DNA from: an uncultured Candidatus Saccharibacteria bacterium
GTDB lineage: Bacteria; Patescibacteriota; Minisyncoccia; Phycocordibacterales; UBA1006
Direction: 5' to 3'
Length of the DNA stretch: 62,702 nt
NCBI GenBank assembly: GCA_964350165.1
Contig: CAYGJA010000002.1
Location: 1 to 62,702, forward strand
Shown piece by piece: positions 4,621-42,105 of this stretch. A model generated the notes under the pieces. The model worked only from the letters and a program-made list of their open reading frames with translations, had not been told where the DNA came from and did no database searches. Numbering within the stretch: the stretch's first letter is position 1; each line of letters opens with the position of its first letter. The position numbers and the translations under genes were made by a program.

Positions 4621-4661
4621 AACCGGAATTCTCTACGGCGAGCATGTTATACTCGACCCAA

Positions 4662-4679
4662 TAAAAAAGGCCTTTCGGC
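4662..4679 (-). terminator. Intrinsic terminator of the ncRNA
   Basis: GGCC-GAAA-GGCC followed by TTTTTT on the minus strand. Confidence 0.7.
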
Positions 4680-4910
4680 CAATCGGTTCCTTTCTTTGTC
4701 AGATATAAATCCCTAAGTAATCGACCTTAAACCATGCGGAAGAAGGCACGGGTAGGCAGCTGAGGAGCATTGCAGAAATCTTGTCTACAAGGACAGGCAC
4801 CACGCAGTCCTTGCTGAAAACCCAATAAGTCGGGAGACCTGATTGCTTAGAGATTTATATCTAGAAAGAAAAGGAAGACAGGGATAACACCTGCCAAAAG
4901 AACTCAATAT
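4662..4910 (-). ncRNA. Structured ncRNA, 6S RNA-like
   Basis: Own sigma70 promoter and terminator; ~30-bp closing stem (4687-4722 with 4841-4876); internal helices whose G-U pairs work only on the minus strand; no ORF of 60 aa or more. Confidence 0.6.
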
Positions 4911-4916
4911 GGAGGT

Positions 4917-4945
4917 ATCTTAGCATGACATATTTTTTTTGTCAA
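4917..4945 (-). promoter_or_regulatory. Sigma70 promoter of the ncRNA
   Basis: TTGACA-17 bp-TAAGAT with extended TG. Confidence 0.75.
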
Positions 4946-4995
4946 GTTTTTTTGTTCACCTCCCTTCTTTTTTGAGCTATACTCTCTATATAATT

Positions 4996-5985
4996 ATGTC
5001 TACAGACAACCAGAATTCAGGAAAAGGCTATTTGGACTATACTTTGCGACCTGATGTCTGGGATGATTATGTTGGTCAAGACGTAATCAAAGCAAATCTA
5101 CATATTTTATTGACCGCCGCCAAGGGGCGCAGCCATCCTCCAGAACACATTCTCCTTTATGGCCCTCCTGGACTAGGAAAAACCACTCTCGCCCACCTGG
5201 TAGCCAAGGAGCTGGATGCTCACATGAAAATAACTTCTGGTCCAGCGATTGAAAAAGTTGGTGATTTGGCTAGCATTCTCACCAATATTCAACCTGGTGA
5301 TGTTGTTTTTATTGATGAGATTCATCGTCTTAATAAAATGGTAGAAGAAATCCTGTATCCAGCCATGGAATCAGGGGTGCTCGATATTATTATCGGCAAG
5401 GGGCCTTCAGCGCGCACCATTCAATTGGAACTGCCTCCTTTTACCCTTATTGCGGCCACAACACGCATTGCCCTTTTGTCCTCCCCGCTTCGTTCGCGAT
5501 TTTCTGGTGGAGTTCATCGTCTGCAATTTTATAGTGAAGAAGAAATAGCCACTATCCTAGCTCGTTCCGCTCGCCTTCTAGATATCGCCGTACCAGATGC
5601 GTCACTAGCAATGATTGCCGAAAGAAGTCGCTACACTCCTCGTACTGCCAATTATTTTCTAAAACGAATTCGTGATTACGCCGAGGTACACAACAACGCA
5701 ATAGTAAATGACGACGTTGTTTCAAAAACACTGCAACTATTAGGGGTAGACCATTTGGGGCTTACCCATAGCGATCGGCATATTCTCGAAACCATTCAAG
5801 ACAAATTCGGCGGAGGCCCGATTGGACTCAAAACACTAGCTGCGGCCACCGGAGAAGAAGATTCTACTATCGAAGAAGTAATTGAACCCTATCTCATCCA
5901 ACGAGGCCTTTTGGAGCGTACCCCGCGCGGCCGCATCACCACCGAACACGCCCAAACACATCTTCAGAAAAATAAAAATAAATAG
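4996..5985 (+). CDS. ruvB: Holliday junction branch migration helicase RuvB
   Basis: [37 protein letters not shown]; start moved to 4996. Confidence 0.97.
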
Positions 5986-6022
5986 TTGCCAGGTTTTTCT
6001 TAAAGCGGTAACCTGTTTGCAT

Positions 6023-6553
6023 ATGTCAGGACACAATAAATGGTCAAAAATAAAGCACAAAAAAGCGCTTACTGATTCCAAAAAATCCAAGATTTTTGGA
6101 AAACTTGTGCGCCTTATTCAAGTAGAAGCCAAGAAAAGTGGCGGTGATATTGAGTCTCCAAGCCTGCGAGCGGCCATAGAAAAAGCCAGAAAAGAAAACA
6201 TGCCCAACGACAACATTGAGCGAGCCATCAAAAAAGCTTCTGAGGCAAGCGATGCCCACCCAGTAACTTTTGAAGTGTACGGCCCAGGCGGGGTTGGTAT
6301 TATTATCGAAGCCTTGACCGACAACAACAATCGCACTAGTTCAGAAATGAAACACCTACTAAGCAAGCAGGGTACTTCATTGGCTGGACCAGGTTCAGTT
6401 TCCTGGAATTTTACTCGTGACACAGAAACCTTTGAATGGAAACCTTTGCAAATGATTGACTTAGAAGACGAAGACCTGGAGAAACTCTCAATATTAGTAG
6501 AAGCCATCGAAGACCATGACGATACCCAAGACGTTTTTACCAACGCCTCTTAG
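6023..6553 (+). CDS. yebC: YebC/PmpR family protein (short form)
   Basis: [15 protein letters not shown]-terminus, [28 protein letters not shown]. Confidence 0.93.
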
Positions 6554-7440: not shown

Positions 7441-9942
7441 ATGCCCAACAAAAAAAACCGAACTAAACACTTACTCCTTAATGGTTTTTTAATACTTTTT
7501 GGTATTGGACTATTGAGTATTAGCGCGCTTCTTATTTGGTTTAGCGGGTTAACACTCCCCAACCTAGACACTTTTGACCAACGAAGAGTTACTACTTCCA
7601 CAAAAATATATGACCGAACTGGAGAAACTCTGCTTTTTGACTTCCACGAAGACGTAACCAGAACCGTAGTCACCGCTGACAAAATAAGCACTTACGCCAA
7701 ACAAGCAGCAGTGGCCATCGAAGACGCTCGTTTTTATCAACATAAAGGAGTAGAACCAAGAGCTATTGCCAGAGCCATCCTGACCAACATCAAAAACGGA
7801 AACCTCTTGGGTGGACAAGGGGGGTCGACCATTACCCAGCAGGTAATCAAGAACGCATTGCTTACCAGCGACAAACGAGTCTCTCGAAAACTCAAAGAAT
7901 GGGTGCTTTCGCTTCGTCTGGAACAAGAATACAACAAAGACCAGATCCTAGCCCTTTATCTCAACGAAATTCCCTATGGGGGAACAATCTATGGCATCGA
8001 AGAAGCTAGTCAGGGTTTTTTTAGAAAACCAGCACTCGACCTCACCCTAGCCGAATCGGCATACTTGGCGGCCATACCCCAAGCACCAACTCGATACTCC
8101 CCCTTTGGAAACAATACCGAAATACTCGACGCAAGAAAAAATACAGTATTACGTAACATGGAAAATCTCGGCTTTATCACCGCCGAAGAACGTGAGGCCG
8201 CTGAAGCCGAAGAAGTTACTTTTTCTGCGCCAACTTTTTCACAGAACAGCGCTCTTCATTTTGTGCAGTACGTGCGTGAATATCTAGAATCAAAATATGG
8301 CCGAGACGCAGTGCTCAACGATGGTTTGCGAGTAATCACAACTCTTGATTTTGAATTGCAACAAAAAGCAGAAGAACTTGTTTTGAGAAATGCCCTAGAA
8401 AACGAAGAAGTCTATGATGCCGAAAACCAAGGCCTCGTCGCCATCGAAGCAAAAACCGGTCAAGTAATAACCATGGTGGGTTCTCGTGATTACGAAGACA
8501 GCGCCATTGATGGTAATTTCAATATTGCCCTGGCCAAACGACAGCCTGGTTCTTCTTTTAAACCTTTTATCTATGCAACTGCTTTTTCTGAAGGATACAC
8601 CGACGAAACCATTCTGTTCGACACCAAGACGCAATTCTCAACTGCAAGTGGTTGTTCTCCAGAAAATCTAACCAGTGGTGGAGATTGCTATTCACCAAGC
8701 AACTATGACGGCAAAGAACAGGGCCCCTTAACCCTTCGCAACGCCTTAGCTCAATCAAGAAACATACCAGCTGTAAAACTTCTCTATCTGGTTGGTATTA
8801 AAGACGCCATTGCCACAGCAAGATCCGCAGGTATCACCACACTTTCTTCTGACCCCGATCAATATGGACTAACACTTGTTTTGGGAGGCGGTGAAGTCAG
8901 CTTGCTCGACATGACTTCCGCCTATACCACCTTTGCCAACGAAGGCATGCGAGTAGAACCAAAAATTATTCTTCGCGTAGAAAACCACACCGGAGAACTG
9001 CTCGAAGAATTCATTCCCAACAAAAGACAAGTACTTGATCAGGAAGCAGTCCGCACTCTTAACAGCATATTATCTGACAATACAGCCCGCAGCCCACTAT
9101 TTGGTAGTCGTTCTTTTATGTATTTTGGCGAAAACACTGATATCGCAGCCAAAACAGGTACCACCAACGACAACCGAGACGCCTGGCTTGTTGGTTACAG
9201 TAGCGAACTGGCGGTTGGGGTATGGTCAGGAAACAACGACAACAGCAAGATGACCAAGGGTTCTTCCATCTCCGGAAAAAGCTGGCGAGAATTCTTCCTG
9301 GAGGCAAATAAAAAATACCCTCCAAAAGCATTTACCAAACCCAGTCTCAATACGGCCACAAAACCCATTCTCCGCGGAGAATGGCGTGGAGGTGACACCT
9401 ACACCATAGACGTCATTAGCGGCAAGCTAGCGACCGAATACACCCCTTCTGCGGCTCGTTTCGATCTAGTAATAACCAACCCTCACTCTATTCTGCACTG
9501 GATACAGCCAGGTGACCCAACCGGGCCAGCCCCAGAAAACCCAAGCAGTGCCCAATACTTACGATGGGAATACGGCGTACAAAAATGGCTTCAAGAAAAT
9601 GAGCCAGAATTACTAACGTCCACAACCGCAATCCCCAGCGAATATGATGATGTTCATGTCCCTGGCAAGGAGCCAAAAATAGACATCTCCCATCTACAGA
9701 GCACGATTCTTCTGGCTGGAAATCCTATTACCTTGCAACCCGTTATCGATTCTCAACAGCCAGTCTCCAAAGTATCTTATTACCTCAACAACAAATTCAT
9801 TGGCAGTTCGATTAATGAACCTTTTGCCATTACTTATGTCCCCCAAGAAAACGACATCCTCACAGAAGGACCCAACACCATCAAGGCAATTCTCACTGAC
9901 GCCATCCTATACACAACAGAAAGCACGGTAGTTGTTAACTAA
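7441..9942 (+). CDS. Class A penicillin-binding protein (transglycosylase-transpeptidase) with C-terminal Ig-like domain
   Basis: AIEDARFY, GGSTITQQ, RKLKE transglycosylase motifs; SSFK, SRN and KTG transpeptidase motifs. Confidence 0.93.
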   Translation: MPNKKNRTKHLLLNGFLILFGIGLLSISALLIWFSGLTLPNLDTFDQRRVTTSTKIYDRTGETLLFDFHEDVTRTVVTADKISTYAKQAAVAIEDARFYQHKGVEPRAIARAILTNIKNGNLLGGQGGSTITQQVIKNALLTSDKRVSRKLKEWVLSLRLEQEYNKDQILALYLNEIPYGGTIYGIEEASQGFFRKPALDLTLAESAYLAAIPQAPTRYSPFGNNTEILDARKNTVLRNMENLGFITAEEREAAEAEEVTFSAPTFSQNSALHFVQYVREYLESKYGRDAVLNDGLRVITTLDFELQQKAEELVLRNALENEEVYDAENQGLVAIEAKTGQVITMVGSRDYEDSAIDGNFNIALAKRQPGSSFKPFIYATAFSEGYTDETILFDTKTQFSTASGCSPENLTSGGDCYSPSNYDGKEQGPLTLRNALAQSRNIPAVKLLYLVGIKDAIATARSAGITTLSSDPDQYGLTLVLGGGEVSLLDMTSAYTTFANEGMRVEPKIILRVENHTGELLEEFIPNKRQVLDQEAVRTLNSILSDNTARSPLFGSRSFMYFGENTDIAAKTGTTNDNRDAWLVGYSSELAVGVWSGNNDNSKMTKGSSISGKSWREFFLEANKKYPPKAFTKPSLNTATKPILRGEWRGGDTYTIDVISGKLATEYTPSAARFDLVITNPHSILHWIQPGDPTGPAPENPSSAQYLRWEYGVQKWLQENEPELLTSTTAIPSEYDDVHVPGKEPKIDISHLQSTILLAGNPITLQPVIDSQQPVSKVSYYLNNKFIGSSINEPFAITYVPQENDILTEGPNTIKAILTDAILYTTESTVVVN

Positions 9943-15116: not shown

Positions 15117-16766
15117 CTATTCTAAACGACCGTCAATACCGTCTATTTCGAGGCTCCAAGGTCTGCCTGTGTTTTTGTCTATAAAGTAGAGATAGTTTCC
15201 TTCAAAAGGATCGTATTGTAGGCTTGTGACATCCAAATTTTGATTGTTTTCTCTGATTGGATCGTAGAGTCGAAACGACTGAGCGTCAACCGTATTGGTG
15301 TACCAGAATTGATCACTGTATGTACTCTTACCCTGAAACCATTGATCTGGTTCCCCAACGCCGAGGCCATTTATTGGAGCGGCGCAGAATACTTGCGAGC
15401 TATCAGTGCTCCAGGTACATTTGTCTGCCAACGTAGAGAAAGGTAGAGAAGTTTCTTTTTTGCTCTGTATGTTGTAAAGACGGGTTCGAGTCTGCCTGTT
15501 GCCTGTATTCGCACTATAGAGAATGTGTGTGCCGTCAGGACTCACAAGAACCAGTAGACCCAGCTTGTCTCCCAAAATCTTGTCGAACCTCCCTGTTTGG
15601 GTGTCTAGAATATAAGCATAGCCAGCTACTTCGTTTGACGGTTTTGTTTGGAGGATTACCAGATCGTTGTTTATCCAATGGCCAATCCATTCACCAAATT
15701 CTGTTGAGAGGATGGTTTTGTTTGTTTGAAAAACGGTGTGATAAGATTCTATGTGATAAGGTTCTACTGGTGTTTTTTTTCGAATGGTCAAAAGCTCAGG
15801 GCCATCGGTGTTCAAGAGCGCAGTGTCTATGTTGGCCGAAATAAAATCTCCGCTCATTAGAGAGGACCTGGTTGCGATTTCCCTATTTTTTGCTTCTTCA
15901 CAAATATTTTTAAGTTCTTGTAAGTTGAGGCTGGTGATTGTACTTGTACTACTTAAAGCGTCTGCTGTACTAGTGGAATCTTGCAATAAGTCCATGTTCT
16001 CTATAAAAGTAGTCATGGCCAGGCCGAGGCTTTCGTCAAAAACATCTCCGGGTTCAATGGTGTATCCATATAAACCAGCTAGCGCATTTTTAGTGCCGGC
16101 TATCCCGGGATGAGTGTCGCCGAATGAAAAACTTCGGTCTACAGGTATTTCACAGGTTAGCTGGTTGTTTGTTTCCGGCACCTCCCCTACAAAGGTTTCT
16201 ATGAGGCTAGATCTTCGATCGTACCTTCTGGCAACAAGAATGTCTCCATTTTGATTAAAAAAAGATTCTCCAATATCGGGTATTTGTGTAGAAGACACTT
16301 GTTCTTCTGTGACGCTTGTTCCTTGTCGGATATCATAAATATGGCCACTAGTTCTTTCGTTGATGCGTATTTTTGGTGCTCGCAATACAGCTAAGGTATC
16401 AATTGGAATCTCTCCTCTAGCTTCGTTGTATGTGACAATACTGTTTTGGGTGGGATAAAAAATATCAGTAACAATGGGGACAAAATTTGAAGTGTCCCTG
16501 TTTGATATTAAGCGGAGTCTGTTTCTAAATAATGGTTGAAATTCGTCAGGTCTTAGCGGGCCGCCACTTTGGTTACCTGGCTCCGTTGGTGTTGGCTCCG
16601 GCTCTCTTTGTGAAGGGTTCCCAAAAGGAAAAAGATTGTCTGGACTAATATTTAGTTCATCGCTAAGAAAATCTCTAAGAAAAAGAAACCAGGATAAGAC
16701 TATGGCAATAAGTATTATTATAAGAATAATGACAATCTTTTTTTTCTTTTTGTTTTTATTTTCCAT
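15117..16766 (-). CDS. Membrane-anchored beta-propeller-like protein with a putative peptidoglycan-binding insert
   Basis: N-terminal basic stretch plus TM; VSPDG and WSTDS propeller-type repeats; FSFGDTHPGI...GDVFDESLGLAMTTF resembles PG_binding_1. Confidence 0.5.
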   Translation of the reverse strand: MENKNKKKKKIVIILIIILIAIVLSWFLFLRDFLSDELNISPDNLFPFGNPSQREPEPTPTEPGNQSGGPLRPDEFQPLFRNRLRLISNRDTSNFVPIVTDIFYPTQNSIVTYNEARGEIPIDTLAVLRAPKIRINERTSGHIYDIRQGTSVTEEQVSSTQIPDIGESFFNQNGDILVARRYDRRSSLIETFVGEVPETNNQLTCEIPVDRSFSFGDTHPGIAGTKNALAGLYGYTIEPGDVFDESLGLAMTTFIENMDLLQDSTSTADALSSTSTITSLNLQELKNICEEAKNREIATRSSLMSGDFISANIDTALLNTDGPELLTIRKKTPVEPYHIESYHTVFQTNKTILSTEFGEWIGHWINNDLVILQTKPSNEVAGYAYILDTQTGRFDKILGDKLGLLVLVSPDGTHILYSANTGNRQTRTRLYNIQSKKETSLPFSTLADKCTWSTDSSQVFCAAPINGLGVGEPDQWFQGKSTYSDQFWYTNTVDAQSFRLYDPIRENNQNLDVTSLQYDPFEGNYLYFIDKNTGRPWSLEIDGIDGRLE

Positions 16767-16783: not shown

Positions 16784-18988
16784 TTAGAGCTCTCCTTTGC
16801 CATCGCCTCCTTCGTTTTGATATTTACTAAAGTGCATGGCGTCTTTGGATGAATTCCATTCCCCACCCCATCCCCAACCTTCTGCTTTCCAGATATTCAC
16901 AAACCAGGCGGGCATGTCTGTCTTGAGTGTGGTTTCCTCAAAAGGGTTTGTTGACCAGTTAATATCAATAGCAACACCAAATGCATGTTTTGATATTTTT
17001 GGTGGTGTGTGTTGTGTTCCATCTGGTTTTTTGATCATTCGACAGCAGTATCCGCCTACCTGTGTAATATCGTATGACTGTCCAGCCGCCCGAAGAGCGG
17101 CGTTGATTCTGTTGATGCTTGGGGTTAGACTTTTGTGCACCTTAGTGGCACCACCGTTGCCAATAGTGACAATATCAACGGCACTTGGATCACATGCTGG
17201 TACCGAGTAGCTTTGTCCGGTGTTTTTATCAGTAAGTTGTATGTCTGGTACGTTCTGCTGTGCCCATCTAATAAAGGCGGGGTCGGTGCAACTGTTACCG
17301 TCGTTAGGAATATCTTCAGGGGATATTCCATTAAGAACAATACCCTCATCTCGTAGTTCGTACTCGAGACTCACCTGTTCTATGTTGGGGTTAATTCGAA
17401 GAAGGTCTGGGTTGATGGTGTTTAAGATAACAAAGACTCCTAGGGCTATTACTAGACCCAAAAGAGACTGAATGATTCTTTCTTTTGCATTTGATTTTTG
17501 TCCAATGACATCAGTGGTCATGTACTGAACCCCTGCAATGATTATCATAATAACTGCCAAAAGACCCACTAGGCCAATTAGAAAGGTCACCATTCTGTTT
17601 ACCCAGAAACCAATAGAAAACTGACCGGTAATTCTGTTCTCCCCCGCTTGAGAATCGGGGACGCCAATCGCCTCTAGGCCTGGAAGTGGCGCAAGAAGTT
17701 CGTAACAGTCTGGTTTTAATCTGCCGTAATCGGTTGGATCGTTTTGATTAACTGGAGGGATATAGCAAGGCGAGTTTTTGATGGAAGTTATATAGCCAGA
17801 CAAAAAAGGGTTATCTGCTATTTGGATAGGCGAAACCTTGGTGCATTCTTCGTCCAAACACTCAAAGCCTTGAGGCTTACCCTGCTCTCCCCATTCAGTG
17901 TCACATTCATCATCACAGAAATATACTATGTGACCACCTGTTTCTTGGGTGGCAGTAAAGAGTGGTGAACCCAATGTTAATCCAAATTTTTCTGGATCGG
18001 TAACTGGCCTGTTCTGGCTAAACCAATTAGCATCAGCCTGATCATTGCTAAGGAAATTTATTCTACACTGACGAATACCATTTCCTACCGCTGGCCCACA
18101 GCCTTCATCACCAAGAGTGTAAGCTGATTCATAAACAAAGACGTTAGAACTATTTCTTACAAACTCGCTTCTACCTGGGATTATTTTCAATCTAAAACGA
18201 TAAGGCAAAGGGGCGGTTCCAAACAATGGTTCGTATGTATTCTGGTACCAACCATAACCAATTTGCCCAACAGATTTGTCGCAATCTTTAAAAATAGCGC
18301 GCACTTTTACAACGGGCTGGTCGTCATCTGAGTAAAAACCTGATGACTGCATGCCTGGCGTTAAAGGGGTCTCTGCGCCGGTTTCTTTGTTTACGTTGAA
18401 TAACTGTAGATTCTTTGTCCTACAAACAACAAAATCTTCATTTTTTTCCCAAATTTGACCCCCTACTACGTTCCAGTCTGCGGTACTAATTACTTCTCCT
18501 GGTGTTAATTTGAATTTAATTTCGTCGGTGTCGTCGTCGGCTTGCAAGTTCCCGTCCGCATCAAATATCTTTGCAATACCTTCGTATTTGCAACTTACTA
18601 CGGAGGTGGGGTTAGAAGCACATCCTTTGTTGGTTATTTGAAAATTTGTTTTTAGAGTTCCATAACTATAAGGACTTACATAGTCTCTTTGAAACACTAG
18701 TTCTCCACTATTTATTTCAAAAACTTGAAACTGCATGGTGATTCCCTCGCAGTCTCCTTCAAAATGGGCGAACATCTGAACCTCGGGGAGATGGTTCGAA
18801 TTGTAGAACTGACTAGGGTGAATTGTTTCTCTATCAAAATTAACATTATAGGTCAGGGAGTCGTTACCAAAGGCGCAAGGGTCGTTTTGAGCTTGAGCCG
18901 ATCCTATAAAAGAGAAAAAAAACAAAAAAAATAGTACCAGAAAACCAAGGCTGGTGGCGTAAGATGGTTTTTTTTGTGCAAAAATCAT
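16784..18988 (-). CDS. Patescibacterial T4SS pilin (VirB2/TrbC-like) fused to an M15 peptidoglycan peptidase
   Basis: Pilin motif AVIMIIIAGVQYMT...AKERI...GLVIAL...ILNTINPDLL; C-terminal SKHAFGVAIDIN and WGGEW...DAMHF. Confidence 0.8.
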   Translation of the reverse strand: MIFAQKKPSYATSLGFLVLFFLFFFSFIGSAQAQNDPCAFGNDSLTYNVNFDRETIHPSQFYNSNHLPEVQMFAHFEGDCEGITMQFQVFEINSGELVFQRDYVSPYSYGTLKTNFQITNKGCASNPTSVVSCKYEGIAKIFDADGNLQADDDTDEIKFKLTPGEVISTADWNVVGGQIWEKNEDFVVCRTKNLQLFNVNKETGAETPLTPGMQSSGFYSDDDQPVVKVRAIFKDCDKSVGQIGYGWYQNTYEPLFGTAPLPYRFRLKIIPGRSEFVRNSSNVFVYESAYTLGDEGCGPAVGNGIRQCRINFLSNDQADANWFSQNRPVTDPEKFGLTLGSPLFTATQETGGHIVYFCDDECDTEWGEQGKPQGFECLDEECTKVSPIQIADNPFLSGYITSIKNSPCYIPPVNQNDPTDYGRLKPDCYELLAPLPGLEAIGVPDSQAGENRITGQFSIGFWVNRMVTFLIGLVGLLAVIMIIIAGVQYMTTDVIGQKSNAKERIIQSLLGLVIALGVFVILNTINPDLLRINPNIEQVSLEYELRDEGIVLNGISPEDIPNDGNSCTDPAFIRWAQQNVPDIQLTDKNTGQSYSVPACDPSAVDIVTIGNGGATKVHKSLTPSINRINAALRAAGQSYDITQVGGYCCRMIKKPDGTQHTPPKISKHAFGVAIDINWSTNPFEETTLKTDMPAWFVNIWKAEGWGWGGEWNSSKDAMHFSKYQNEGGDGKGEL

Positions 18989-18992: not shown

Positions 18993-20000
18993 TTATTGTA
19001 TCACGCGAGCTGTGGCTACTGGTGATATTTGAAAAGGTTTAGACCGATTAGAAACAGCTACGCCGATTTCGGCAACTTGCTGTCCTGTGAATTCTACTGG
19101 AAGCTCATTTGGTATTGGTGAAGATGTTTTTCCGATAGTTTTCGCATTTACGATCCAATCAAAGTTAAGAAGGCCTAAGAGTTCTCTTTTTGCAGAAAAA
19201 AAGTAGGGCTCAGCTCGTAGAACCAGGTCCTGATTGTTTGTTGCTGGCGTTAGGGTGTTGGCATTTCTAAGACCGACACCTTGTTTATACAAAACAACTT
19301 CAGGATCAACTATGTTGATGGCCACACTTGCTTCGGCTGTGGTGAGGCCGTCCCTATGAACCACTTTGAGGTCTATAATTTCTTCTCTAGTCAAGAAGTC
19401 GTTTCTAATTACCAATGGGTTTTCCCCAAAACCAGACGAATCGGGTAGATTAGTGTTGTTCTGTGTCCAATTGAATACAATTTTTTTTTCTTGAGATTGG
19501 GCGCCTTCGTTTTTTAGATTTGGAAGTCCTACTATTTTAATAAAGCTTTCGGGGGTTGGCAGGGCTTTGCCTCGATAAAAAGGAGGGGTATAGGTGTCTG
19601 CTTGCCAAAGAATATCGAGATCGGCTGGAGCAATTTGAATCCATTTTCTAAGATTGGTACCACTGTCTACTTGGATATAGGCCTCAATTGAGGTTAATTC
19701 CCCCTGAGAACCGGTTGTTGTTTGTATCTCTGTTTCTCCTGTGCCACTAAGGACTATCTCCCCATTAACAAACCAGGTAATACGCAATCTATTAACATTA
19801 ATAATATAGCTTTCTAGAGAAACCGTTATTTTTTCGTTTGTTCCCGGAGTTTTGGGGTCAATGTTCATGGAGATGTCTCGAGCTTCAATGGTCGAGCCAA
19901 AATTCTGCGCGTATGCCGAATGCAAAAAAAGAAAAGAAAACAGCGAACCAAACACTGTCATGGCTACACATAGAATGATTTTTTTTCTAGCCCTTATCAT
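18993..20000 (-). CDS. Secreted Ig-like hypothetical protein of the T4SS cluster
   Basis: Signal peptide; beta-rich with ITWFVNG and LWQADTYTPPFYRGKALP; TATAAT 6 nt before ATG. Confidence 0.6.
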   Translation of the reverse strand: MIRARKKIILCVAMTVFGSLFSFLFLHSAYAQNFGSTIEARDISMNIDPKTPGTNEKITVSLESYIINVNRLRITWFVNGEIVLSGTGETEIQTTTGSQGELTSIEAYIQVDSGTNLRKWIQIAPADLDILWQADTYTPPFYRGKALPTPESFIKIVGLPNLKNEGAQSQEKKIVFNWTQNNTNLPDSSGFGENPLVIRNDFLTREEIIDLKVVHRDGLTTAEASVAINIVDPEVVLYKQGVGLRNANTLTPATNNQDLVLRAEPYFFSAKRELLGLLNFDWIVNAKTIGKTSSPIPNELPVEFTGQQVAEIGVAVSNRSKPFQISPVATARVIQ

Positions 20001-20023: not shown

Positions 20024-21871
20024 TTAGTTTACAAAATCATTTTTTGTATCCACATTTTCTCGATATTCGTCTTTTGATTTACTGATGGACATGAGCTGGG
20101 CTGGGTCAGAGGTAATAATCTGATCCTCGGTGTAGCTCGCTATTATTTTAATGGCTGCGTGCTTGAGGCCGGCAAAGAAAATCCCCTCTCCCCTGTTGGA
20201 TTCCAGTAAAAGATATTTTTCTTCCTCAGTCAGGTTAAAGACTTTTTGTAGATCGTCTATTGTGGATGGTGACTGCTTGAGAAGAATCTGAATAGAAGAG
20301 TTTGTGATAATAGGCACGCCATATTTTGACTTCATAAAGTCTCCCACGTCTTGGGTGATGGTGGCTAGCCCGAGATAGTATTTACGACCACGCTTGGCTA
20401 GGCTAAACAGGAACGAGGCAGTGTCGTCGTTTTTCATCATCCACCAAGCTTCATCTACCACCAGAAGGCGTTTGCGCAAGTCTTTGCGAACCGCAGACCA
20501 GATATAGTTGGTGATAATGTACATCGCCGCTGGTTTTAGTTCGTCCTCCATGTCGCGAATAGAAAAAACAACTAGTTTTTTATTGATACTGACGTTGCTG
20601 GGTGAGTTGATGAAACCAGCCCAAGAACCCTTGGTGTATTTCTCCAATCGAGCCGAAAGCGATTCACTGCCCTCCATGCTGTTGAGTACCATTTCAAAGT
20701 CAGACATCAGTGGCGGCTCTAGATTGCTAAAGTCTTTGTTGGGGGTGATGTCTTTAAGGGCGTAAGTTTCGGTGATGGCTCTATCTACCACAGAGTCTTC
20801 TTCTGGCGAAAGTCCACCAAGCAAGATGCGGAAAAGACCAACTAGATGAATAACATGAGAACGAAGGACGTCTTCCGGAGACTCGTCTGGCAAGGGCTGA
20901 GGTAGGTCGAAGGGATTGATGTGGTGTTCTGAAGACAGCGAAATATTAAAGTACCTCCCCCCTACTGCTTCGGCAAGGAATTCGTATTCTCTTTCTGGGT
21001 CGATGATAATAACTTCGGTGTCGAACATCATCGTGCGCAGAATTTCTAGTTTGGTGGTGTATGATTTTCCGGCGCCAGATTTTGCGAAAATAACCGAGTT
21101 GTAGTTTTCGAGAGAAAAGCGATCAAATAAAATCAAGCCATTGTTGTGGCGATTGATGCCGTACAAAATCCCCTGTTCCGAAGAAAGATCTGATGAAATA
21201 AAAGGAAAAAAAGACGACAAAGGACCAGAGTTCATTTTTATATTTACCCCTAATTCATCCCGGGCAATAGGGTTTACTGAATGAAATCCTTGGACCTGTT
21301 GATACAAGGCGGGTTTTACGTATACCAACCTTGATTCAAAAATTGTTTTGATTTCATTTTCTAGGGCGCTCAATTCTTTTTCATTGTTGGCGTAGATTGT
21401 TACATAAAGACCAACATCAAACATTTTTTCTTGAGCTTGTTGTAGCTGATTGCGAAGCTGTTCTAGGTCACGCACGGCGGTATCCAACATTGGATCACGC
21501 ACCATACCTTTTTCTTGTCGAAGATTAATCTGACTCTGGACCTCGGCTACTTTTTTTTGAAACTTACGAAGAATTTTTTCGGTTGGAATGGGGTTTATTT
21601 GAATAGAAAGGTCAAATTTTTGGTCAAGATTAATTACTGGCCCAAGCCAACCAGAAACCAGAAAGCGCGGGTAAGAAATTATAAAGTAGCTACGAGCCAA
21701 TTGGTCACCGATGGTTAGTGCCTTGGTGTCTATTTTTATAGCAGAAGGGGCTAGAATATCCTGGAGCTCTAGTTTTGCTGTTTCGTATACTTCTTGGGGT
21801 AGAACGGGCATTATTTGCGCACTCTCTGCAGAAGTATCCTTTTTTTTGAATATATTAGATAGAAAACTCAT
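20024..21871 (-). CDS. VirB4/TraE-like conjugal-transfer ATPase
   Basis: YGINRHN, IFAKSGAGKS Walker A, IIDPEREY, VVDEAW Walker B, RGRKY, TITQDV. Confidence 0.88.
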   Translation of the reverse strand: MSFLSNIFKKKDTSAESAQIMPVLPQEVYETAKLELQDILAPSAIKIDTKALTIGDQLARSYFIISYPRFLVSGWLGPVINLDQKFDLSIQINPIPTEKILRKFQKKVAEVQSQINLRQEKGMVRDPMLDTAVRDLEQLRNQLQQAQEKMFDVGLYVTIYANNEKELSALENEIKTIFESRLVYVKPALYQQVQGFHSVNPIARDELGVNIKMNSGPLSSFFPFISSDLSSEQGILYGINRHNNGLILFDRFSLENYNSVIFAKSGAGKSYTTKLEILRTMMFDTEVIIIDPEREYEFLAEAVGGRYFNISLSSEHHINPFDLPQPLPDESPEDVLRSHVIHLVGLFRILLGGLSPEEDSVVDRAITETYALKDITPNKDFSNLEPPLMSDFEMVLNSMEGSESLSARLEKYTKGSWAGFINSPSNVSINKKLVVFSIRDMEDELKPAAMYIITNYIWSAVRKDLRKRLLVVDEAWWMMKNDDTASFLFSLAKRGRKYYLGLATITQDVGDFMKSKYGVPIITNSSIQILLKQSPSTIDDLQKVFNLTEEEKYLLLESNRGEGIFFAGLKHAAIKIIASYTEDQIITSDPAQLMSISKSKDEYRENVDTKNDFVN

Positions 21872-21873
21872 AT

Positions 21874-22509
21874 TTATTTTACTTTTTCTTCAAAACGAGC
21901 CCCTCCTCCCTGTTGTTCTCCGGGGTTGTAGATCTGATAATAAACCTCGATTAATTCCTGGGTTCCTAATTGGACACCTCGTAATCCAACGCTCGCCAGT
22001 CCCTGTTGAACAATTTCCGCACGCTGTTCTAGTTGTGTTCTGGCTTCTTCAAAACGAAAAGTGTCAGTTTGGCTTGTTCCTCCCAGTTTGCTTATAAACC
22101 CAAAAACCCCCCCTTCTTTTTTGGTGATTGCAGCATCATAAGGAATAACAACAAAAAAACTCTTGCGCATGATGTTTGTTTGATCGGTGAACCAGCGAAT
22201 GAATTCGATATATTCTTTTATTTGTATTTGAAGTAATTCTTCAGGGATTTCTTTAGACCTTTTTTCTAGAGTAGCAAGATAAGGGGCGATGTTTAAATTT
22301 CTTGATTTTATAAAGAATTGAATGGGAAACTCCAAAGAATTAAGTAGCCTTTGAAATTGATTTATTAGGGCGTTCTGTTCTTCATCGGATTTCAGCTCAA
22401 AATTCACTGAAGATATCATGATAATGCTTCTTAATCCGCCGTCTTTGAGAACAACGACTCCATCGCGAACCTCATCTATCGGAATAAAGTTTTGTGTGGG
22501 AGCGCTCAT
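21874..22509 (-). CDS. VirB4 N-terminal-like (TraC-type) T4SS accessory protein
   Basis: TQNFIPIDEVRDGVVVLKDG, SVNFELKS.EEQ, FFVVIPY; between PrgI and VirB4. Confidence 0.65.
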   Translation of the reverse strand: MSAPTQNFIPIDEVRDGVVVLKDGGLRSIIMISSVNFELKSDEEQNALINQFQRLLNSLEFPIQFFIKSRNLNIAPYLATLEKRSKEIPEELLQIQIKEYIEFIRWFTDQTNIMRKSFFVVIPYDAAITKKEGGVFGFISKLGGTSQTDTFRFEEARTQLEQRAEIVQQGLASVGLRGVQLGTQELIEVYYQIYNPGEQQGGGARFEEKVK

Positions 22510-22511: not shown

Positions 22512-22925
22512 TTATTTTTTGCTATCGTCCAGAACATCAAGACTCCAGGATAATTCTCGTAAATTACTTTGTGGCTGTTGTTTGTGTTTTGGGGCTAATT
22601 CAATCGAGGGAGCCAATACTTCTTTTTTGATATTTTTGTTATTGTAATCTTTTTGCCATAAAAACATTTTTGCCGAAAAAAGATGCTGAACATACGCCTG
22701 CACTATTTTGATAAAGGATTGCCCATTAATTTTATGAAAAGCCAATGCCAGAGTGAGTGCAGCCGTAGGGAGGGCGAGGATAAAGGCTATGACCTGAGGG
22801 GTAAGTTGAATATAAAGATAGATAAGCCCCCCTCCCCCGGCAAGGTAGACGAATTGTTTTATGGTGAGAGGTCCAAAGAGTTTGTCTTCTACGTCAATAA
22901 ATTGAGGTACCTGAAACTGTTGCAT
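22512..22925 (-). CDS. PrgI family (VirB3-like) protein
   Basis: QFQVPQFIDVEDKLFGPLTIKQF followed by two TM helices. Confidence 0.85.
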   Translation of the reverse strand: MQQFQVPQFIDVEDKLFGPLTIKQFVYLAGGGGLIYLYIQLTPQVIAFILALPTAALTLALAFHKINGQSFIKIVQAYVQHLFSAKMFLWQKDYNNKNIKKEVLAPSIELAPKHKQQPQSNLRELSWSLDVLDDSKK

Positions 22926-23470: not shown

Positions 23471-26299
23471 TTAACTCCTGGCAGCGTTAATTCTGGTAGT
23501 TAGGTTTGCCTGTTGGTCTAGATTTTGTGAAAGATTTGTTTGTTCGCTAGACAAAAGACTTCGTTCTCGGTTAAGTCGGTTGAGCCTGCGTCTTTGATCG
23601 GCGTCGAGAGTACCGGTTGCGCTATTTGCTACAGCTTCAGAAATAGCTCTGATTTCAACGTCAATAGCGCTGATTTTTCCACTTACAGTAGCTGTTAACT
23701 GTCTCATTCCCGCACGAACAGCATCACGCTCGGCTGGCTGGTTCAGCAATCGTTTAGCTTTTTTGAGCTGATCGGGCTGTACTGAATCTAAGGCAGCACG
23801 AAGCTGTGAAGGGGTCATATTTATCAATTGATCCTCGGTGAATGTTTGTTGTAGATGATAGTATCTCCCCAAGGTATCGTTTAGATCTTCTAGTTGAGTG
23901 CTCAGGGTTGATATGAGGTTTTGATTTCGGCTGTCTTTTGCTAGCTCGGCTTGGGTTCTGCGTGCGTATTCTTCACTGGCACTTGCTCTTGACCCCCTAG
24001 CAAAATCGTCTGTACGATTAATGGCATCTCTTTGTTCAGCAGCTAGCATGCTTCTGGTTTCAGAGTTTATCTCGGCAGAAGTCTGCATTCTTCGATAAGT
24101 AGATGCTTTGGGAAGATTATTTTGTTGTCGCTCTCTTTCCTCGTTTTCCCAATTAGCTGCAACGTCGGTTCTGTCGGTAACTGCGATGGATCCAGTATCA
24201 CTGGCTATTCCATCTGCATCAACATTCCTGAGCACCTGACCATTGTTATAGCTCGCATCAAAATCTCGTCGAAGTTCTGTTGCTAGATATGCTCGGTCTG
24301 CGTCTGTGGTGGTGGCATTATTCCAATAAGTAGACTGTTCGAGCTGTTCCTGAAGGTGTTCAAAGCGTACTTCTCGAAGACGGTCGGCGACACGTTCACC
24401 AATGATGTCTCCTGTTTGTGTAGGGTCAATTGCACCAGTATCATTATCATATCCTTTGATCTCTTTTCCTTGTTCGTAATTTTCATCAAATTCTCGACGC
24501 ATGTTCTGTAATTCCAAGAACTGGTCTTCTTGGTTGAGGTTTTTGTAATAACTTGTCGCTGTAAAGCTTGCTTCGGCAGTGGCTTTAGCTGACTCGTATT
24601 GTCTTGATGCATTAGGATCAAGTGCTCGGTTGTGTTCCTTGGCTTCTTCATCTCTTCTCCCAGCCTCGTTACCGGTCAGTAGAAGTCTTTGTTCTCGTCG
24701 TTCCAGTTGTTCTTTTCTTTTCTTTTTCCTGCCTTCGTAGCGTTCGTCATAGCTTTGGCCACCCATAAAACGAGTTCCTCCTATGGATGGCGCCGCTGTT
24801 CCGGTTAAAGCTCCCCCTGTTCGTACTGCCGACCCAAAAGACTGAGCGATCTTGTTGTCTCTAAGATCGAAATTAGATCTCGATACTCGCTCACTGGCAC
24901 CAAGGGTTCTTCTGGCTATGTTTTTACCGCCGAAGTTAAACTCCCTACCCCCTACCTTCATTTTGAGTCCGTTTCTGGCAATATTTTTGAGTTCTCCACT
25001 TTTCGAAAGAGCTCCAGCTGCTCCTCCTATTACCGTGGTTCCTGCCAAGGCAGCCCCACCAACAGCTATGCCAGCTGTAGTGGTAATTGATTTTGTCACC
25101 ACACTGGCTACCACTTCTCCAACTTTGCCCGACATTTTTTTTGCTTGAGACCTCCCCAGCACGAGGAACCCAATAACCAAAGCAAAAGGAATAGCTACGC
25201 TCATAAAAATTTGTGACAATGATGAACCGCCGGTTACGTTTGGGTTTATAGGTATTCCAATCGCCAGGAATTTGATGGTCAAATACATGAAGAATATGAA
25301 AAGCGGCGCCATAAAAGAATAGTTTATGAGAGCACCAATCCAGCTTTGGAATCCAATATAAGGTATTGCGTTTGCTTTGGGTAAGGCCAGACTCACAAAA
25401 GCAAAAGGAGAAAAAATCATAGAATAGTAAAGACCTACTATTCTGGCCAAGAAATAAACCGAAACCGAAATAAAAATATAAATAAGAAAAATATTGAAAA
25501 TAATAGAACCAACAATGGTAAGGATAAAGATATTCCCATTATCTTCTTTGTTTGAAAAATTAATACCACCGCTTTGATTTGGAGCAAGCAGTGCTTGCGG
25601 GTTGGCGAGACTGGTAAGCATTAATCCAACACTTTTGATTCCATCTGCACCAGTTAGATCTTCGTTGGCGTTTCCCCTTCCGACAAGTTCTATTTGGTTG
25701 TAGAGTGTTCGGGCCAAAATGTTTCCGGCATCAACAATTATTCTCGAAAAGAAAAGGCTAAAGTTAATAAGCAACGCCATTACTATAAGATAAATCAAGA
25801 GTTTTTTGCCATCTGCGCCACCAATACTTGCTTTAAGTACAAAAGAAAAAGCTATATAAATGAGGCCAAAAATAAAAAGTATATTGGTAATATCTCTAAC
25901 GATTTTCCAACCCTCGAGAATAAAACTCGTAGGAAGCTGATTGGCGTCTTTAATAGGTACTCCTCGATAGGTTCCGGCGTCTATTGAAAAGAATATAAAA
26001 AAATCAAGAAAACCAGCCGCCCTACCCGCCAACCAGTAGGTCGGTGTCCATACGACAAAGTAAAGAAATTGACCACCACAGCCAGTTACGGAAAAACCCT
26101 CAGCCAAGTTAAAACAAGAAGGCAGTGCATAAGTTGAAGCCAATGTTTCTTCGTTTTGTGGGTTGTAAGATTGAGCCAGAGCAGACGAAGAGGTGATCGC
26201 TATTTTTTCTTGAGACAAAGAGATAGAAAAAGGACCCAAGACAAAAGCCGCCAGAACAAGAGATAAGATGATTTTGGTGCTAATTTTTCTCAGGTGCAT
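23471..26299 (-). CDS. VirB6/TrbL-like polytopic membrane protein with a long charged C-terminus
   Basis: GWKIVRDITN, ALLINFSLFFSRIIVD, many TM helices, G/A-rich segment, then a coiled-coil-like tail. Confidence 0.65.
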   Translation of the reverse strand: MHLRKISTKIILSLVLAAFVLGPFSISLSQEKIAITSSSALAQSYNPQNEETLASTYALPSCFNLAEGFSVTGCGGQFLYFVVWTPTYWLAGRAAGFLDFFIFFSIDAGTYRGVPIKDANQLPTSFILEGWKIVRDITNILFIFGLIYIAFSFVLKASIGGADGKKLLIYLIVMALLINFSLFFSRIIVDAGNILARTLYNQIELVGRGNANEDLTGADGIKSVGLMLTSLANPQALLAPNQSGGINFSNKEDNGNIFILTIVGSIIFNIFLIYIFISVSVYFLARIVGLYYSMIFSPFAFVSLALPKANAIPYIGFQSWIGALINYSFMAPLFIFFMYLTIKFLAIGIPINPNVTGGSSLSQIFMSVAIPFALVIGFLVLGRSQAKKMSGKVGEVVASVVTKSITTTAGIAVGGAALAGTTVIGGAAGALSKSGELKNIARNGLKMKVGGREFNFGGKNIARRTLGASERVSRSNFDLRDNKIAQSFGSAVRTGGALTGTAAPSIGGTRFMGGQSYDERYEGRKKKRKEQLERREQRLLLTGNEAGRRDEEAKEHNRALDPNASRQYESAKATAEASFTATSYYKNLNQEDQFLELQNMRREFDENYEQGKEIKGYDNDTGAIDPTQTGDIIGERVADRLREVRFEHLQEQLEQSTYWNNATTTDADRAYLATELRRDFDASYNNGQVLRNVDADGIASDTGSIAVTDRTDVAANWENEERERQQNNLPKASTYRRMQTSAEINSETRSMLAAEQRDAINRTDDFARGSRASASEEYARRTQAELAKDSRNQNLISTLSTQLEDLNDTLGRYYHLQQTFTEDQLINMTPSQLRAALDSVQPDQLKKAKRLLNQPAERDAVRAGMRQLTATVSGKISAIDVEIRAISEAVANSATGTLDADQRRRLNRLNRERSLLSSEQTNLSQNLDQQANLTTRINAARS

Positions 26300-26376
26300 A
26301 TTTATTACAGTGAGCCCTGTATTGATACAATAAGTATACCCTACCCTTCCACCTGTCTAAATACAAGGGTGTTTGC

Positions 26377-26419
26377 AACACAAAAGCCCTTCGACACACA
26401 GTCGAGGGGCTTTTGTGTT
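26377..26419. terminator. Long inverted repeat, terminator
   Basis: AACACAAAAGCCCTTCGAC-acaca-GTCGAGGGGCTTTTGTGTT, 19-bp stem with one wobble. Confidence 0.75.
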
Positions 26420-26430
26420 ATTTGTTTTTA

Positions 26431-40335: not shown

Positions 40336-42105
40336 TTATTGTTCAGTATCGCCGTAGCCAAAGAGGTTTGGTAATTTGTATTTTTCGTAAATATTCCGCT
40401 GTTGTCCTTCTGGAAACGTTTTGGGATTCACCATCCCTAGAATTTCGAGTAGATTTCTGGGGTGGACTAATTCTGCACCTTGTTGGTCAAGGGTCGAGGC
40501 GTTGCAACCGATATAATGGTCCCCAGAAGTGAAAAGCTTTCCAGATTGTTGCAAAGTGCTAAAGGGTCCGGCCCAGCTGGATTGGTTTTTGGTTAAATAA
40601 TCAAGTAACTTTTTGGTAGGTGCGGGCTGGTTTTGTTTATTTGTTATTACTGGAGAAAGCAAGCTAAAGCCAGAATAGGATTGATTAGAATTGTCTGAGC
40701 TAGGTTTTGAATAGAATTGAATTTGGGAATGAATTGGAAAGCTTGGGGTTCCAATCAAGTCTTCCATCACAGAAGGAAAATACTGAAGAAGTATTTTTCT
40801 CTTGTCTGGGTCTTGTATTTTTGCCTGTAGATTCCCGGGAATAAAGATAGCTGTGTTTTGTAATAATGGGTGAGTGGACTCGATGATTGCTTCACCAAGG
40901 CCTGGATGCTGACCCAGTGCTTCTGTTTGGTGAATATAGGTATATAAGGAAATCGGAATTTGGCGCTGTCTGTTTCTGGTGGTTTGTGCTATTGAGCCTA
41001 GCTCTTGTTTTACAAAAGGATCACTGGTGAGAGTGGCTTGTTTTTGAAATAAAGAAAGGAATGGATTGGTTTTTTTTAGAGTGTTCTTTTTCTGGGTTTC
41101 TTGTTTTGGAATCTGATTGTCTCGCAACCAGTCTTCGCTAAAGTCTGGAAGTGTCTCTTCTGTCGATAATCCCAAGAAATTTCGGCAAAATTTTGGATCG
41201 GCCGCCATTTGATACAGGGTGTTGGGCATTTTTTGAGCGTTGAGTAGCCACGACTCGAGGGGTTTTTCCCAAGATTCTTTTAGGTTTTTTAAAAAGCCAG
41301 ACTCTTCTTGTTTTGCAAGAATGTTTAGTGCTTCTTGAGGAATTAGTCGTATTCTGTGTTCGACGAGTTTGGAAAAAAGAAGGGATAGTCTAGCTATTTG
41401 GAGTAGTTGGGGAAGTTTTTCCTGAAGTCCCTGAAGCGCCGGGGGTGTATTGCTATCAAGCAGGCCTGACTGGAGAAGGAGCTGAATTAATTGCGTGGTG
41501 TGATTTCCGTTGTATGTTTCGAGGCCATCTGTGTTTTTGGTCGGTGGATAGATAGTTGTTTCTCCCCCTCTTGTGTCTAAAAGAACGGAAACCTGCTCCC
41601 CTTTTTCGTTTGTTGGAAGTGTTTTTGAGAAAATAACCTTTGGATAATCCTGCTGTCTCTCTATTGAATCATTATAATCTGTGCCTAGTTCTAGTATGGC
41701 GGGGCGATGTATGATTCCAGCTGTTTTGAGGGCCCTTATCAGGGCGCTTAACTCTCGGTTTTTTTCTTGGAGAACAACATGGAAAGATGTTTCCGAATCA
41801 AACATGGTTTCGGCTAGTTTTGTTGCACCAGGCAGTGTGGTCGGTTTTTGTTCCCCAATCCCCTCCTTTTTTTTAGTTATTGGAGTGCTTCCCGGAAATA
41901 CAAAATCAATCTTGCCACTTGGCATTTCGAACCAGACACATTGGTTGCCAGCAGGGGTTGTTTCTTGATAGATAACAACGGCGTTTATGTCCCCCAGTAA
42001 TTCATGGTTGATGGTGATGCTTTCGCCACGTTCAAAATTAGTCACAAATGTTTCGGGACTTTCGGGTTTGGTCGGAATTTTTTCACGGGATTTGACTTCT
42101 TCCAT
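40336..42105 (-). CDS. Hypothetical protein
   Basis: 589-aa ORF; TAGAAT 8 nt upstream of start. Confidence 0.65.
   Translation of the reverse strand: MEEVKSREKIPTKPESPETFVTNFERGESITINHELLGDINAVVIYQETTPAGNQCVWFEMPSGKIDFVFPGSTPITKKKEGIGEQKPTTLPGATKLAETMFDSETSFHVVLQEKNRELSALIRALKTAGIIHRPAILELGTDYNDSIERQQDYPKVIFSKTLPTNEKGEQVSVLLDTRGGETTIYPPTKNTDGLETYNGNHTTQLIQLLLQSGLLDSNTPPALQGLQEKLPQLLQIARLSLLFSKLVEHRIRLIPQEALNILAKQEESGFLKNLKESWEKPLESWLLNAQKMPNTLYQMAADPKFCRNFLGLSTEETLPDFSEDWLRDNQIPKQETQKKNTLKKTNPFLSLFQKQATLTSDPFVKQELGSIAQTTRNRQRQIPISLYTYIHQTEALGQHPGLGEAIIESTHPLLQNTAIFIPGNLQAKIQDPDKRKILLQYFPSVMEDLIGTPSFPIHSQIQFYSKPSSDNSNQSYSGFSLLSPVITNKQNQPAPTKKLLDYLTKNQSSWAGPFSTLQQSGKLFTSGDHYIGCNASTLDQQGAELVHPRNLLEILGMVNPKTFPEGQQRNIYEKYKLPNLFGYGDTEQ

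Follow-up and report, generated by a model that had tools for sequence, protein, structure and literature searches.

A pilin-type hairpin fused to a predicted wall peptidase at the oriC-proximal type IV secretion locus of an uncultured Patescibacteria bacterium

The window considered here, a stretch of 62,702 nucleotides from an uncultured Candidatus Saccharibacteria bacterium (GenBank assembly GCA_964350165.1, contig CAYGJA010000002.1), contains a type IV secretion system (T4SS) locus in which an open reading frame at 16784..18988 on the minus strand encodes a protein of 734 residues. A signal peptide, an immunoglobulin (Ig)-like N-terminal region, a VirB2-type pilin hairpin and an M15C peptidase domain follow one another along this protein. 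The architecture is real and the gene intact and conserved; since the same plan recurs in 55 database homologues and in 76 proteins from the genomes of other species, it is not a product of chance, and the same product is called in an independent public assembly with precomputed Pfam matches to T4SS_pilin and Peptidase_M15_4. The protein, which occupies the pilin slot of an oriC-proximal T4SS locus of the Paceibacteria type, probably carries the VirB1-like wall-cutting activity of the machine outside the membrane, its dependence on the T4SS, its enzymatic activity and its site of action being what we infer. It combines known kinds, a VirB2-like pilin and a T4SS wall hydrolase, and is not a categorically new system; in the literature searched, no mention was found of a pilin hairpin fused to a wall hydrolase, nor of cassette exchange in such a protein.

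Patescibacterial T4SSs, their position near oriC and their arrays of VirB2-like pilins have been described previously (PMC12102498; PMC12857230; PMC10633639). The system is nearly universal in the phylum, lies beside oriC and was essential in the one species tested, and its function has been called "completely unknown" (PMC11665869). Most Patescibacteria with VirB2-like pilins are without a recognisable VirB1 (PMC12102498). Hairpin-hydrolase proteins would supply this missing wall-cutting function, tied physically to the pilin module, and the fusions offer experimental handles in the form of a soluble enzyme domain, a conserved hairpin and two hypervariable exported modules that possibly report on the partner cell. 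Should they be directed at the host, their exchange would be the sign of an arms race between epibiont and host across much of microbial dark matter.

The locus is a chromosomal, oriC-proximal, relaxase-less Patescibacteria T4SS of the published kind (PMC12102498), in a genome of 817 kb that is 99.7% complete and whose relatives carry the labels Paceibacterota, Nomurabacteria, Campbellbacteria or Patescibacteria. A preliminary description, made from the sequence alone, had remarked that conjugative systems normally use a separate VirB1 hydrolase. The cluster is indeed without one, and no other SLT or NlpC/P60 domain exceeds its cut-off genome-wide: NlpC/P60 gave no match in the whole genome and SLT a single sub-threshold match located outside this gene. 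The sole M15_4 domain of the genome is the one in the pilin-M15 gene, and the other proteins of the locus yielded no hydrolase or protease match in Pfam or NCBIfam.

Architecture and predicted topology

The gene and its parts are as follows (aa, amino acid residues; TM, transmembrane helix; AF2, AlphaFold2; pLDDT, predicted local distance difference test score).

16784..18988, minus strand: whole gene, 734 aa; signal peptide, Ig-like N-region, VirB2-type hairpin and M15C peptidase
18887..18988, minus strand: signal peptide, aa 1-34; hydrophobic at 8-34, ending in AQA before Q (hydropathy)
17699..18886, minus strand: exported N-terminal region, aa 35-430; tandem beta-sandwiches (AF2), 14 Cys, strongly lineage-restricted
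17675..17707, minus strand: pre-hairpin motif CYELLAPLPGL, aa 428-438; conserved in homologues
17399..17614, minus strand: VirB2-type pilin hairpin, aa 459-530; TM1, short K/R loop (QKSNAKER) and TM2, Pfam PF18895
17408..17428, minus strand: ILNTINP heptad, aa 521-527; outer end of TM2, junction between hairpin and C-region
17294..17398, minus strand: linker, aa 531-565; AF2 confidence low at 537-545
16787..17293, minus strand: C-terminal M15C (LAS-type) zinc peptidase domain, aa 566-734, as predicted from Pfam Peptidase_M15_4 and PDB sequence matches; pLDDT >90
16829..17056, minus strand: predicted catalytic block, aa 645-720; R650, H668, D675 (H-x6-D), D716 and H719

The order of domains given in the preliminary description, from signal peptide through a Cys-rich beta-structured N-region and a two-TM pilin motif to M15, is borne out by hydropathy, Pfam and AF2 alike. 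Three hydrophobic segments were detected by hydropathy (8-34, 459-496 and 503-530), and the signal-peptide start is common to every one of the 55 database homologues. The AF2 model, built on these homologues with a mean pLDDT of 76.6, has beta-strands over residues ~50-380 (pLDDT ~90 at 70-230), long helices at 459-491 and 495-525 and a confidently modelled C-domain (pLDDT >90).

That the two-TM motif is a T4SS-pilin-type hairpin, as had been proposed, was confirmed by a Pfam match to T4SS_pilin (PF18895) over residues 462-524 (E 1.5e-6, 28.6 bits vs a cut-off of 26.6). The same family matched 48 of the 55 database homologues and 74 of the 76 species-genome proteins at E<=1e-3, and nine of the latter 76 were also matched by TrbC/VirB2 (PF04956). 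In common with VirB2 and TrbC pilins, the protein has a signal peptide and then two hydrophobic helices with a short basic loop (hydropathy, AF2), the loop joining TM1 and TM2 being QYMTTDVIGQKSNAKER with three K/R residues, and VirB4- and VirB3-type genes and a candidate VirB6-type gene stand in the same locus; it departs from them in that a small mature pilin of ~70-130 residues is not what is encoded, ~425 residues preceding and ~205 following the hairpin. Strong conservation of the hairpin is bordered by (C)YxLLAPLPGL before it and ILNTINP after it, the latter matching a loose pattern in ~50 of 58 database homologues, the majority exactly as ILNTINP. This heptad is near-invariant in fused proteins with unrelated heads and also stands at the extreme C-terminus of bare pilins of the same subtype. 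It may cap the helix, mark a site of processing or serve as a junction for recombination.

The predicted topology is that of a canonical VirB2 pilin, with the N-region exported, TM1 running out-to-in, the basic loop cytoplasmic and TM2 running in-to-out. Given this succession of signal peptide, TM1, short basic loop and TM2, the M15 domain is predicted to lie outside the membrane; the preliminary description had made its proposal depend on the peptidase not being cytoplasmic, and the prediction agrees with it. The abundance of Cys in both large exported regions (18 in all, 14 ahead of the hairpin and four behind) would fit an extracytoplasmic location.

Peptidase_M15_4 matched residues 663-721 (E 7e-15, 55.8 bits vs a cut-off of 25), and the closest PDB sequences were the L-alanyl-D-glutamate peptidase domain of the Listeria phage endolysin Ply500 (2vo9, E 5.6e-6) and LysB4 (6akv). 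Ply500 has H, D and H opposite H668, D675 and H719, and the Asp of a DxxH motif opposite D716, residues that we take to be the zinc ligands and catalytic Asp of the phage enzyme. The motifs picked out earlier were located at residues 645-650 (GGYCCR), 666-675 (SKHAFGVAID) and 716-720 (DAMHF), with the M15 active-site residues intact; R650, H668, D675, D716 and H719 are retained in the 15 M15_4-type fused homologues, with Arg absent from one. The domain looks catalytically competent and most likely cuts peptidoglycan stem peptides, the bond in question being suggested by its nearest relatives. While Ply500 and LysB4, both M15C phage endolysins, are its best solved-structure sequence matches with H/D/D/H aligned, the 734-residue protein differs from them in lacking an endolysin-type wall-binding domain, in being tethered to a membrane hairpin and in its chromosomal position within a T4SS locus.

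The pilin slot and its exchangeable ends among relatives

A match to the protein was found in 38 of 41 genomes of the same family or order, the alignment being limited, save for one genome, to residues ~400-545. About 15 of these genomes keep the order u549 - big pilin - u335 - virB4 - trsD - prgI beside jag/yidC/dnaA, where u549 and u335 denote the downstream and upstream partners of 549 and 335 residues. A scan of one genome per species with an alignment of the hairpin only returned 234 relatives; in the best 79 loci of these, u335 was encoded within 4 kb in 73, u549 in 69, virB4 in 69 and jag in 59. A bare pilin of 124-199 residues occupies this slot in further families of the order as well as in several of the more widely sampled species; it has a signal peptide, an LLxPLxG motif, the hairpin and ILNTINPxLL, at which it ends. 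Intermediate forms with C-extensions of 60-114 residues occur as slot proteins of other species, and no hydrolase gene was found inserted near the slot in loci with a bare pilin. That some species hold a bare hairpin protein in the slot argues that the hairpin has a T4SS role of its own and that the heads are optional, and weighs against the hairpin being a borrowed anchor. More widely, PF18895 was detected in 298 of the 301 Patescibacteria genomes sampled, as a rule with several copies per genome; among the matches listed, most were frames of 95-250 residues.

The plan common to the 55 database homologues comprises a signal peptide, an N-region of 90-640 residues, a hairpin of ~68 residues and a C-region that usually measures 165-420 residues. 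Heads were counted by Pfam on the C-regions of the 55 database homologues and, separately, of the 76 species-genome proteins, as listed below.

Head type: database homologues (of 55); species-genome proteins (of 76)
M15_4: 15; 3
VanY: 7; 15
NlpC/P60: 3; 9
YkuD: 3; 5
SLT_2: -; 5
SLT: 1; 2
M23: 1; -
Amidase_5: 1; 2
Amidase_2: -; 1
Peptidase_M15: -; 1
Phage lysozyme: -; 1

Different heads also occur at the syntenic slot itself, where M15_4 was found at one locus (L019), NlpC/P60 at five (L020, L022, L023, L025, L027), VanY at two (L021, L024), SLT types at L029-L032 and L038, and unrecognised heads at six loci. On a VirB4 tree of 14 genomes, at least six changes of head type are needed.

The comparison of two congeners, G023 and G015, is the most telling in this respect. 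Identity between them is 94% for VirB4, 86.5% for YidC, 83.6% for Jag, 77.5% for u335 and 70.8% for u549, and only 35% overall for the pilin-slot protein, with ~30% in the N-region and ~80% in the hairpin. Their C-domains are unrelated, M15_4 in one and NlpC/P60 in the other, and the protein alignment stops just past LNT(V/I)NPDLLDLDP. At the DNA level, 76% similarity runs through virB4 and u335 and ends at the start of the slot gene, returns only across the hairpin (310 nucleotides, 73%) and then again in u549. In these patterns both ends of the slot protein behave as exchangeable cassettes.

Extreme variability of the N-terminal region, the check that had been recommended for a host-facing domain, was found when relatives were compared, as the ~30% identity between the congeners illustrates. 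Just eight relatives of the N-region were recovered among 1.84 billion representative proteins, and these carry differing heads (M15_4, NlpC/P60 or unrecognised), which indicates that the N and C modules assort independently. When the full-length AF2 model was compared with the PDB by Foldseek, no significant match was obtained (best E 5e-3) and only generic tandem Ig, fibronectin type III (FnIII) and macroglobulin domains were returned; a specific adhesin or lectin identity for the N-region was dropped, the fold matches being generic and none reaching E<1e-3. BLASTP of the 734-residue protein against the genome's own 706-residue pilin gave nothing significant, and against its 276-residue pilin a weak N-domain match (E 0.003), with "TLGDxxC" and "YFCDxxCD..WG" in common, which hints that the Cys-rich modules of the two are related.

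One of the unrecognised heads is recurrent. It reads "ITEAFPP..H.S.CHYNGTC.D ... (E/D)HFSVY", with an H-x6-D ... (E/D)H pattern, and was found in P0003, P0004, P0006, P0020 and P0024 and at L028:9302-11773 and L044:407-1294, both on the minus strand. For this class Pfam gave no match at E values as high as 5, its alignment to the M15_4 class with hhalign was not significant, and in the PDB its profile gave weak matches to the N-domain of Sonic hedgehog (E 0.02). The class may represent a divergent family of LAS peptidases particular to these fusions.

Possible roles of the fused enzyme

Two bodies of precedent can be brought to bear on this protein. The Patescibacteria VirB2-like pilins (PF18895, including the essential Southlakia epibionticum array) share with it a signal peptide, a two-helix hairpin recognised by the same hidden Markov model and a place beside virB4/prgI near oriC; they are small (~100-250 residues) and have been treated as plain pilins (PMC10633639; PMC12102498), whereas the 734-residue protein has an enzyme added. 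PrgK (pCF10), TraG (pIP501), CwlT (ICEBs1), TcpG (pCW3) and VirB1 are, like it, wall-degrading enzymes held at the membrane and encoded in a T4SS operon, and syntenic orthologues of the pilin-M15 protein even bear the classical SLT or NlpC/P60 domains of these enzymes. The pilin-M15 protein differs from them in being anchored by a pilin-type hairpin and not by a single N-terminal helix, in having an M15C enzyme and in an enzyme type that varies between close relatives. Although its gene, of peptidoglycan-hydrolase type, lies inside a T4SS operon, the domain is M15 and not the SLT (GH23) or CHAP/NlpC-P60 of the VirB1 class, and on its sequence the protein would be a functional analogue of VirB1, PrgK, TraG and CwlT and not a member of their sequence family. 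A possible counterpart is SEML1_0007 of S. epibionticum ML1, an essential hypothetical protein of 1113 residues encoded directly downstream of virB4, with a C-terminal Hedgehog/DD-peptidase domain of ~160 residues (PMC10633639, Table S2). Its large size, its location with respect to virB4 and its C-terminal LAS domain are shared with the pilin-M15 protein, and it probably follows the same design.

In the mechanism that we propose, a VirB2-like hairpin in the membrane would bear two add-ons on the outer face, a disulfide-rich Ig-like stack on the N-terminal side and an M15C zinc peptidase on the C-terminal side. The M15C head would supply the wall-opening activity, like that of VirB1 or PrgK, that is otherwise absent from this T4SS, and the tying of the enzyme to a module handled as a pilin by the T4SS would bring about cutting where the machine is built. 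Recombination at the hairpin borders LAPLPGL and ILNTINP would swap the add-ons, leaving close relatives with different enzymes or none.

How far the enzyme would travel depends on the fate of the hairpin. In structures of VirB2-type pili, the N- and C-termini of the pilin lie at the outer surface. The slot protein may, we tentatively suggest, be built into the filament or channel of the T4SS, as a minor subunit or as one that initiates it, with the enzyme travelling along. It could possibly stay instead in a membrane pool at the base of the machine and open its own wall only, a course to which we attach slightly less belief; because the linker measures only ~35 residues, a form retained in the membrane would reach no further than the cell's own wall. 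Judged by F-pilus geometry, a homopolymer with 70-kDa decorations would amount, as a rough estimate, to a brush of ~20 nm, which makes sparse or terminal incorporation among small pilins the more plausible arrangement. The balance is tilted slightly toward an outward, partner-directed role by the exported ends, both of which diverge very fast and are exchanged between congeners, and by the existence of bare-pilin variants; the proposal of the preliminary description, in which a filament would carry the enzyme into the host wall, is plausible.

A more specific version of this proposal, in which the protein is a filament subunit probably located at the tip, its N-domain recognising the host and its peptidase drilling the host peptidoglycan to admit a conduit, appears rather unlikely to us. 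It gains from the fact that the protein occupies a slot filled by a plain pilin in other species, and from the fast evolution and congener exchange of both exported ends, as would be expected of modules facing a variable partner; the scarcity of N-domain relatives points the same way, and the genome's small pilins could make a shaft. It also fits cryo-electron tomography of the Saccharibacterium M. amalyticus, in which the inner membrane bears a tube, ~9 nm wide and ~70 nm long, whose tip shows a "barbed" density, and a conduit of 8.6 nm leads into the host; the structure was not assigned there to a T4SS (PMC11880426). Set against this, no filament has been shown in this lineage and the tomographic structure has no tie to T4SS pilins, the fold matches of the N-domain are generic, and a membrane-embedded form on its short linker would reach only its own wall. 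M15, NlpC/P60 and SLT enzymes moreover act on bonds that self and host walls have in common, so that the choice of enzyme is not diagnostic of its target. Taken to its furthest extent, the idea becomes one of an enzyme-armed lance with small pilins as the shaft and with the slot pilin, bearing Ig-like and hydrolase heads, as its cap or starting point. The cap would be the barbed tip of the M. amalyticus tube, would recognise the host surface and cut host peptidoglycan, whereupon the conduit would form, and the heads would be refitted again and again to the surface and wall chemistry of the host by recombination at both borders of the hairpin; this picture is decidedly unlikely.

It is equally doubtful that the hairpin is a plain membrane anchor of pilin ancestry and that the protein never enters the pilin pathway, opening its own wall in the manner of PrgK, TraG and CwlT. 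T4SS hydrolases of monoderms are membrane-anchored and operon-encoded (PMC12102498), the distance from TM2 to the enzyme is short, the neighbouring product u549 has a peptidoglycan-binding domain, and a wall is synthesised by the cell itself (PBP1A at 7441-9942), all of which would suit such an arrangement. Yet a simple anchor would have no need of hairpin residues and border motifs that stay nearly invariant over hundreds of species, the bare hairpin proteins of the same slot speak for a role of the hairpin itself, and housekeeping of the own wall leaves unexplained both the divergence of the N-domain and the change of bond specificity between congeners.

Precedents for grafting and for exchange exist in other systems. 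In the modular type IV pilins PilB and PilC of Streptococcus sanguinis a functional module is grafted onto a pilin, and in CdiA and Rhs proteins C-terminal cassettes follow a conserved junction. PilB and PilC belong to a different pilin superfamily (type IV pili, not VirB2), and the fold match to PilC was insignificant (E 0.045). VirB2, TrbC and TraA pilins lose residues from both termini by trimming, and the plain pilins of the present type begin and end exactly at LAPLPGL and ILNTINP; if these two motifs were cleavage sites, the protein would be a precursor that releases a small pilin, an adhesin-like fragment and a free peptidase. This we judge improbable, as no protease gene was recognised in the locus by Pfam or NCBIfam and the motifs could equally be structural helix caps or recombination junctions. 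It is still more improbable that the protein is a polymorphic antibacterial toxin, in which a conserved carrier bears an exchangeable, peptidoglycan-degrading C-terminal toxin by analogy with CdiA/Rhs or with T4SS and T6SS amidase effectors. It shares with CdiA/Rhs a variable C-terminal domain swapped straight after a junction motif, and its wall-degrading heads are of wide variety, but no co-varying immunity gene follows the cassette, the next gene always being the conserved u549; the protein is also inserted in the membrane by two helices and not secreted, and in some species the slot is headless. That the enzyme serves growth or daughter-cell separation unconnected to the T4SS, its adjacency being a result of genome compactness, is hardly credible: recognisable wall hydrolases are very few in the genome and the locus adjoins housekeeping genes, but the hairpin is of T4SS-pilin type, virB4 is linked in 69 of the best 79 species loci, and housekeeping enzymes are not normally swapped for unrelated folds between congeners.

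Several points weigh against a wall-cutting pilin-slot protein as proposed above. The Pfam score of the hairpin is barely over the threshold, and the NCBIfam match to "Mbov_0395 pilin-like" of a Mycoplasma integrative and conjugative element (1e-6) falls below that model's cut-off. Some ~630 residues of decoration go far beyond that of known VirB2 pilins, and dense packing of subunits so decorated in a filament would be sterically implausible. Foldseek of the model against the PDB gave no LAS match with the full-length query, the only one used, in which Ig-like repeats dominate, and the assignment of the M15 fold draws on sequence evidence. The C-domains of some syntenic orthologues were matched by no library, and exchange of the enzyme could be neutral rather than adaptive. 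Promoter and terminator scans of the locus did not rise above the level of shuffled sequence.

The surrounding locus and further pilin genes

The window holds dnaN, dnaA, rnpA, yidC and jag, with the T4SS block directly after them on the minus strand. The gene order following jag is u549, pilin-M15, u335, VirB4 in parts of 615 and 211 residues, PrgI/VirB3, a 173-residue protein, a 942-residue protein and two large surface-type proteins. The neighbours of the pilin-M15 gene that bear on its setting are listed here.

15117..16766, minus strand: u549, downstream partner, 549 aa; TM anchor, PG_binding_1-type domain and beta-propeller-like C-region
18993..20000, minus strand: u335, upstream partner, 335 aa; N-terminal TM anchor and three tandem Ig/FnIII-like domains
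20024..21871, minus strand: VirB4-type ATPase C-part, 615 aa; NCBIfam conju_CD1110 2.5e-109, Pfam P-loop_TraG
21874..22509, minus strand: TrsD/VirB4-N-like protein, 211 aa (NCBIfam)
22512..22925, minus strand: PrgI/VirB3-like protein, 137 aa; Pfam PrgI 1.6e-9
23471..26299, minus strand: polytopic membrane protein, 942 aa; at least six hydrophobic segments in the first 390 aa and a large hydrophilic C-part, no Pfam match

No Pfam match was obtained for u549 as a single sequence. The profile of its orthologues matched CtpB (9e-10), 1lbu (2.5e-9) and phiKZ gp144 in the PDB, and TolB weakly (0.045); its invariant residues include two Cys and a PD.W motif. The stop of u335 is separated from the start of pilin-M15 by a gap of 4 nt. 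The AF2 model of u335 (pLDDT 80.9) has as best fold matches the Ig domains of MDGA1, the BIg domains of SiiE and FnIII of fibronectin, and its profile gave no match to PDB sequences. u335 was considered as the missing VirB8 and rejected, since the model consists of three Ig/FnIII-like domains and not of a VirB8/NTF2 fold; the VirB8 of these systems is still missing, u335 not filling the place.

VirB4 is split into a 211-residue N-terminal gene and a 615-residue ATPase gene 2 nt apart, and the split is kept in relatives. The 942-residue protein, conserved beside the locus in relatives, is by its architecture a candidate analogue of an extended VirB6. Between its gene and that of a 1416-residue protein, at 26333-26420 on the minus strand, lies a strong hairpin with a 19-bp stem, nine GC pairs and a T-rich 3' arm; a promoter-like TTTAGA-17-TATACT comes next. 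Transcription of the block may be divided here into two units, the second of which would extend from the 942-residue gene through pilin-M15 to u549. Upstream of the T4SS block, two open reading frames on the minus strand, of 1765 residues (34794-40091) and 589 residues (40336-42105), gave no Pfam match at E<=0.01.

In other Patescibacteria classes, hairpins of different subtypes are fused to SLT and Amidase_2, to SLT and a GDSL esterase, or to ~1100 residues with a CARDB domain, and N-extended pilins also occur. At L127 (G129:C33), in another family, two tandem paralogues at 826-2646 and 3922-6030 on the minus strand share an identical N-terminal hairpin of a different subtype, which is followed in one by SLT and Amidase_2 and in the other by SLT and a GDSL esterase.

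The genome under study has a second pilin locus on another contig (G000 contig C3:14670-18806; L036 8565-12806, minus strand), in which five tandem T4SS_pilin genes encode proteins of 97, 146, 128, 276 and 706 residues. In the last of these, three InlB-B-repeat-like (Flg_new_2) domains stand ahead of the hairpin.

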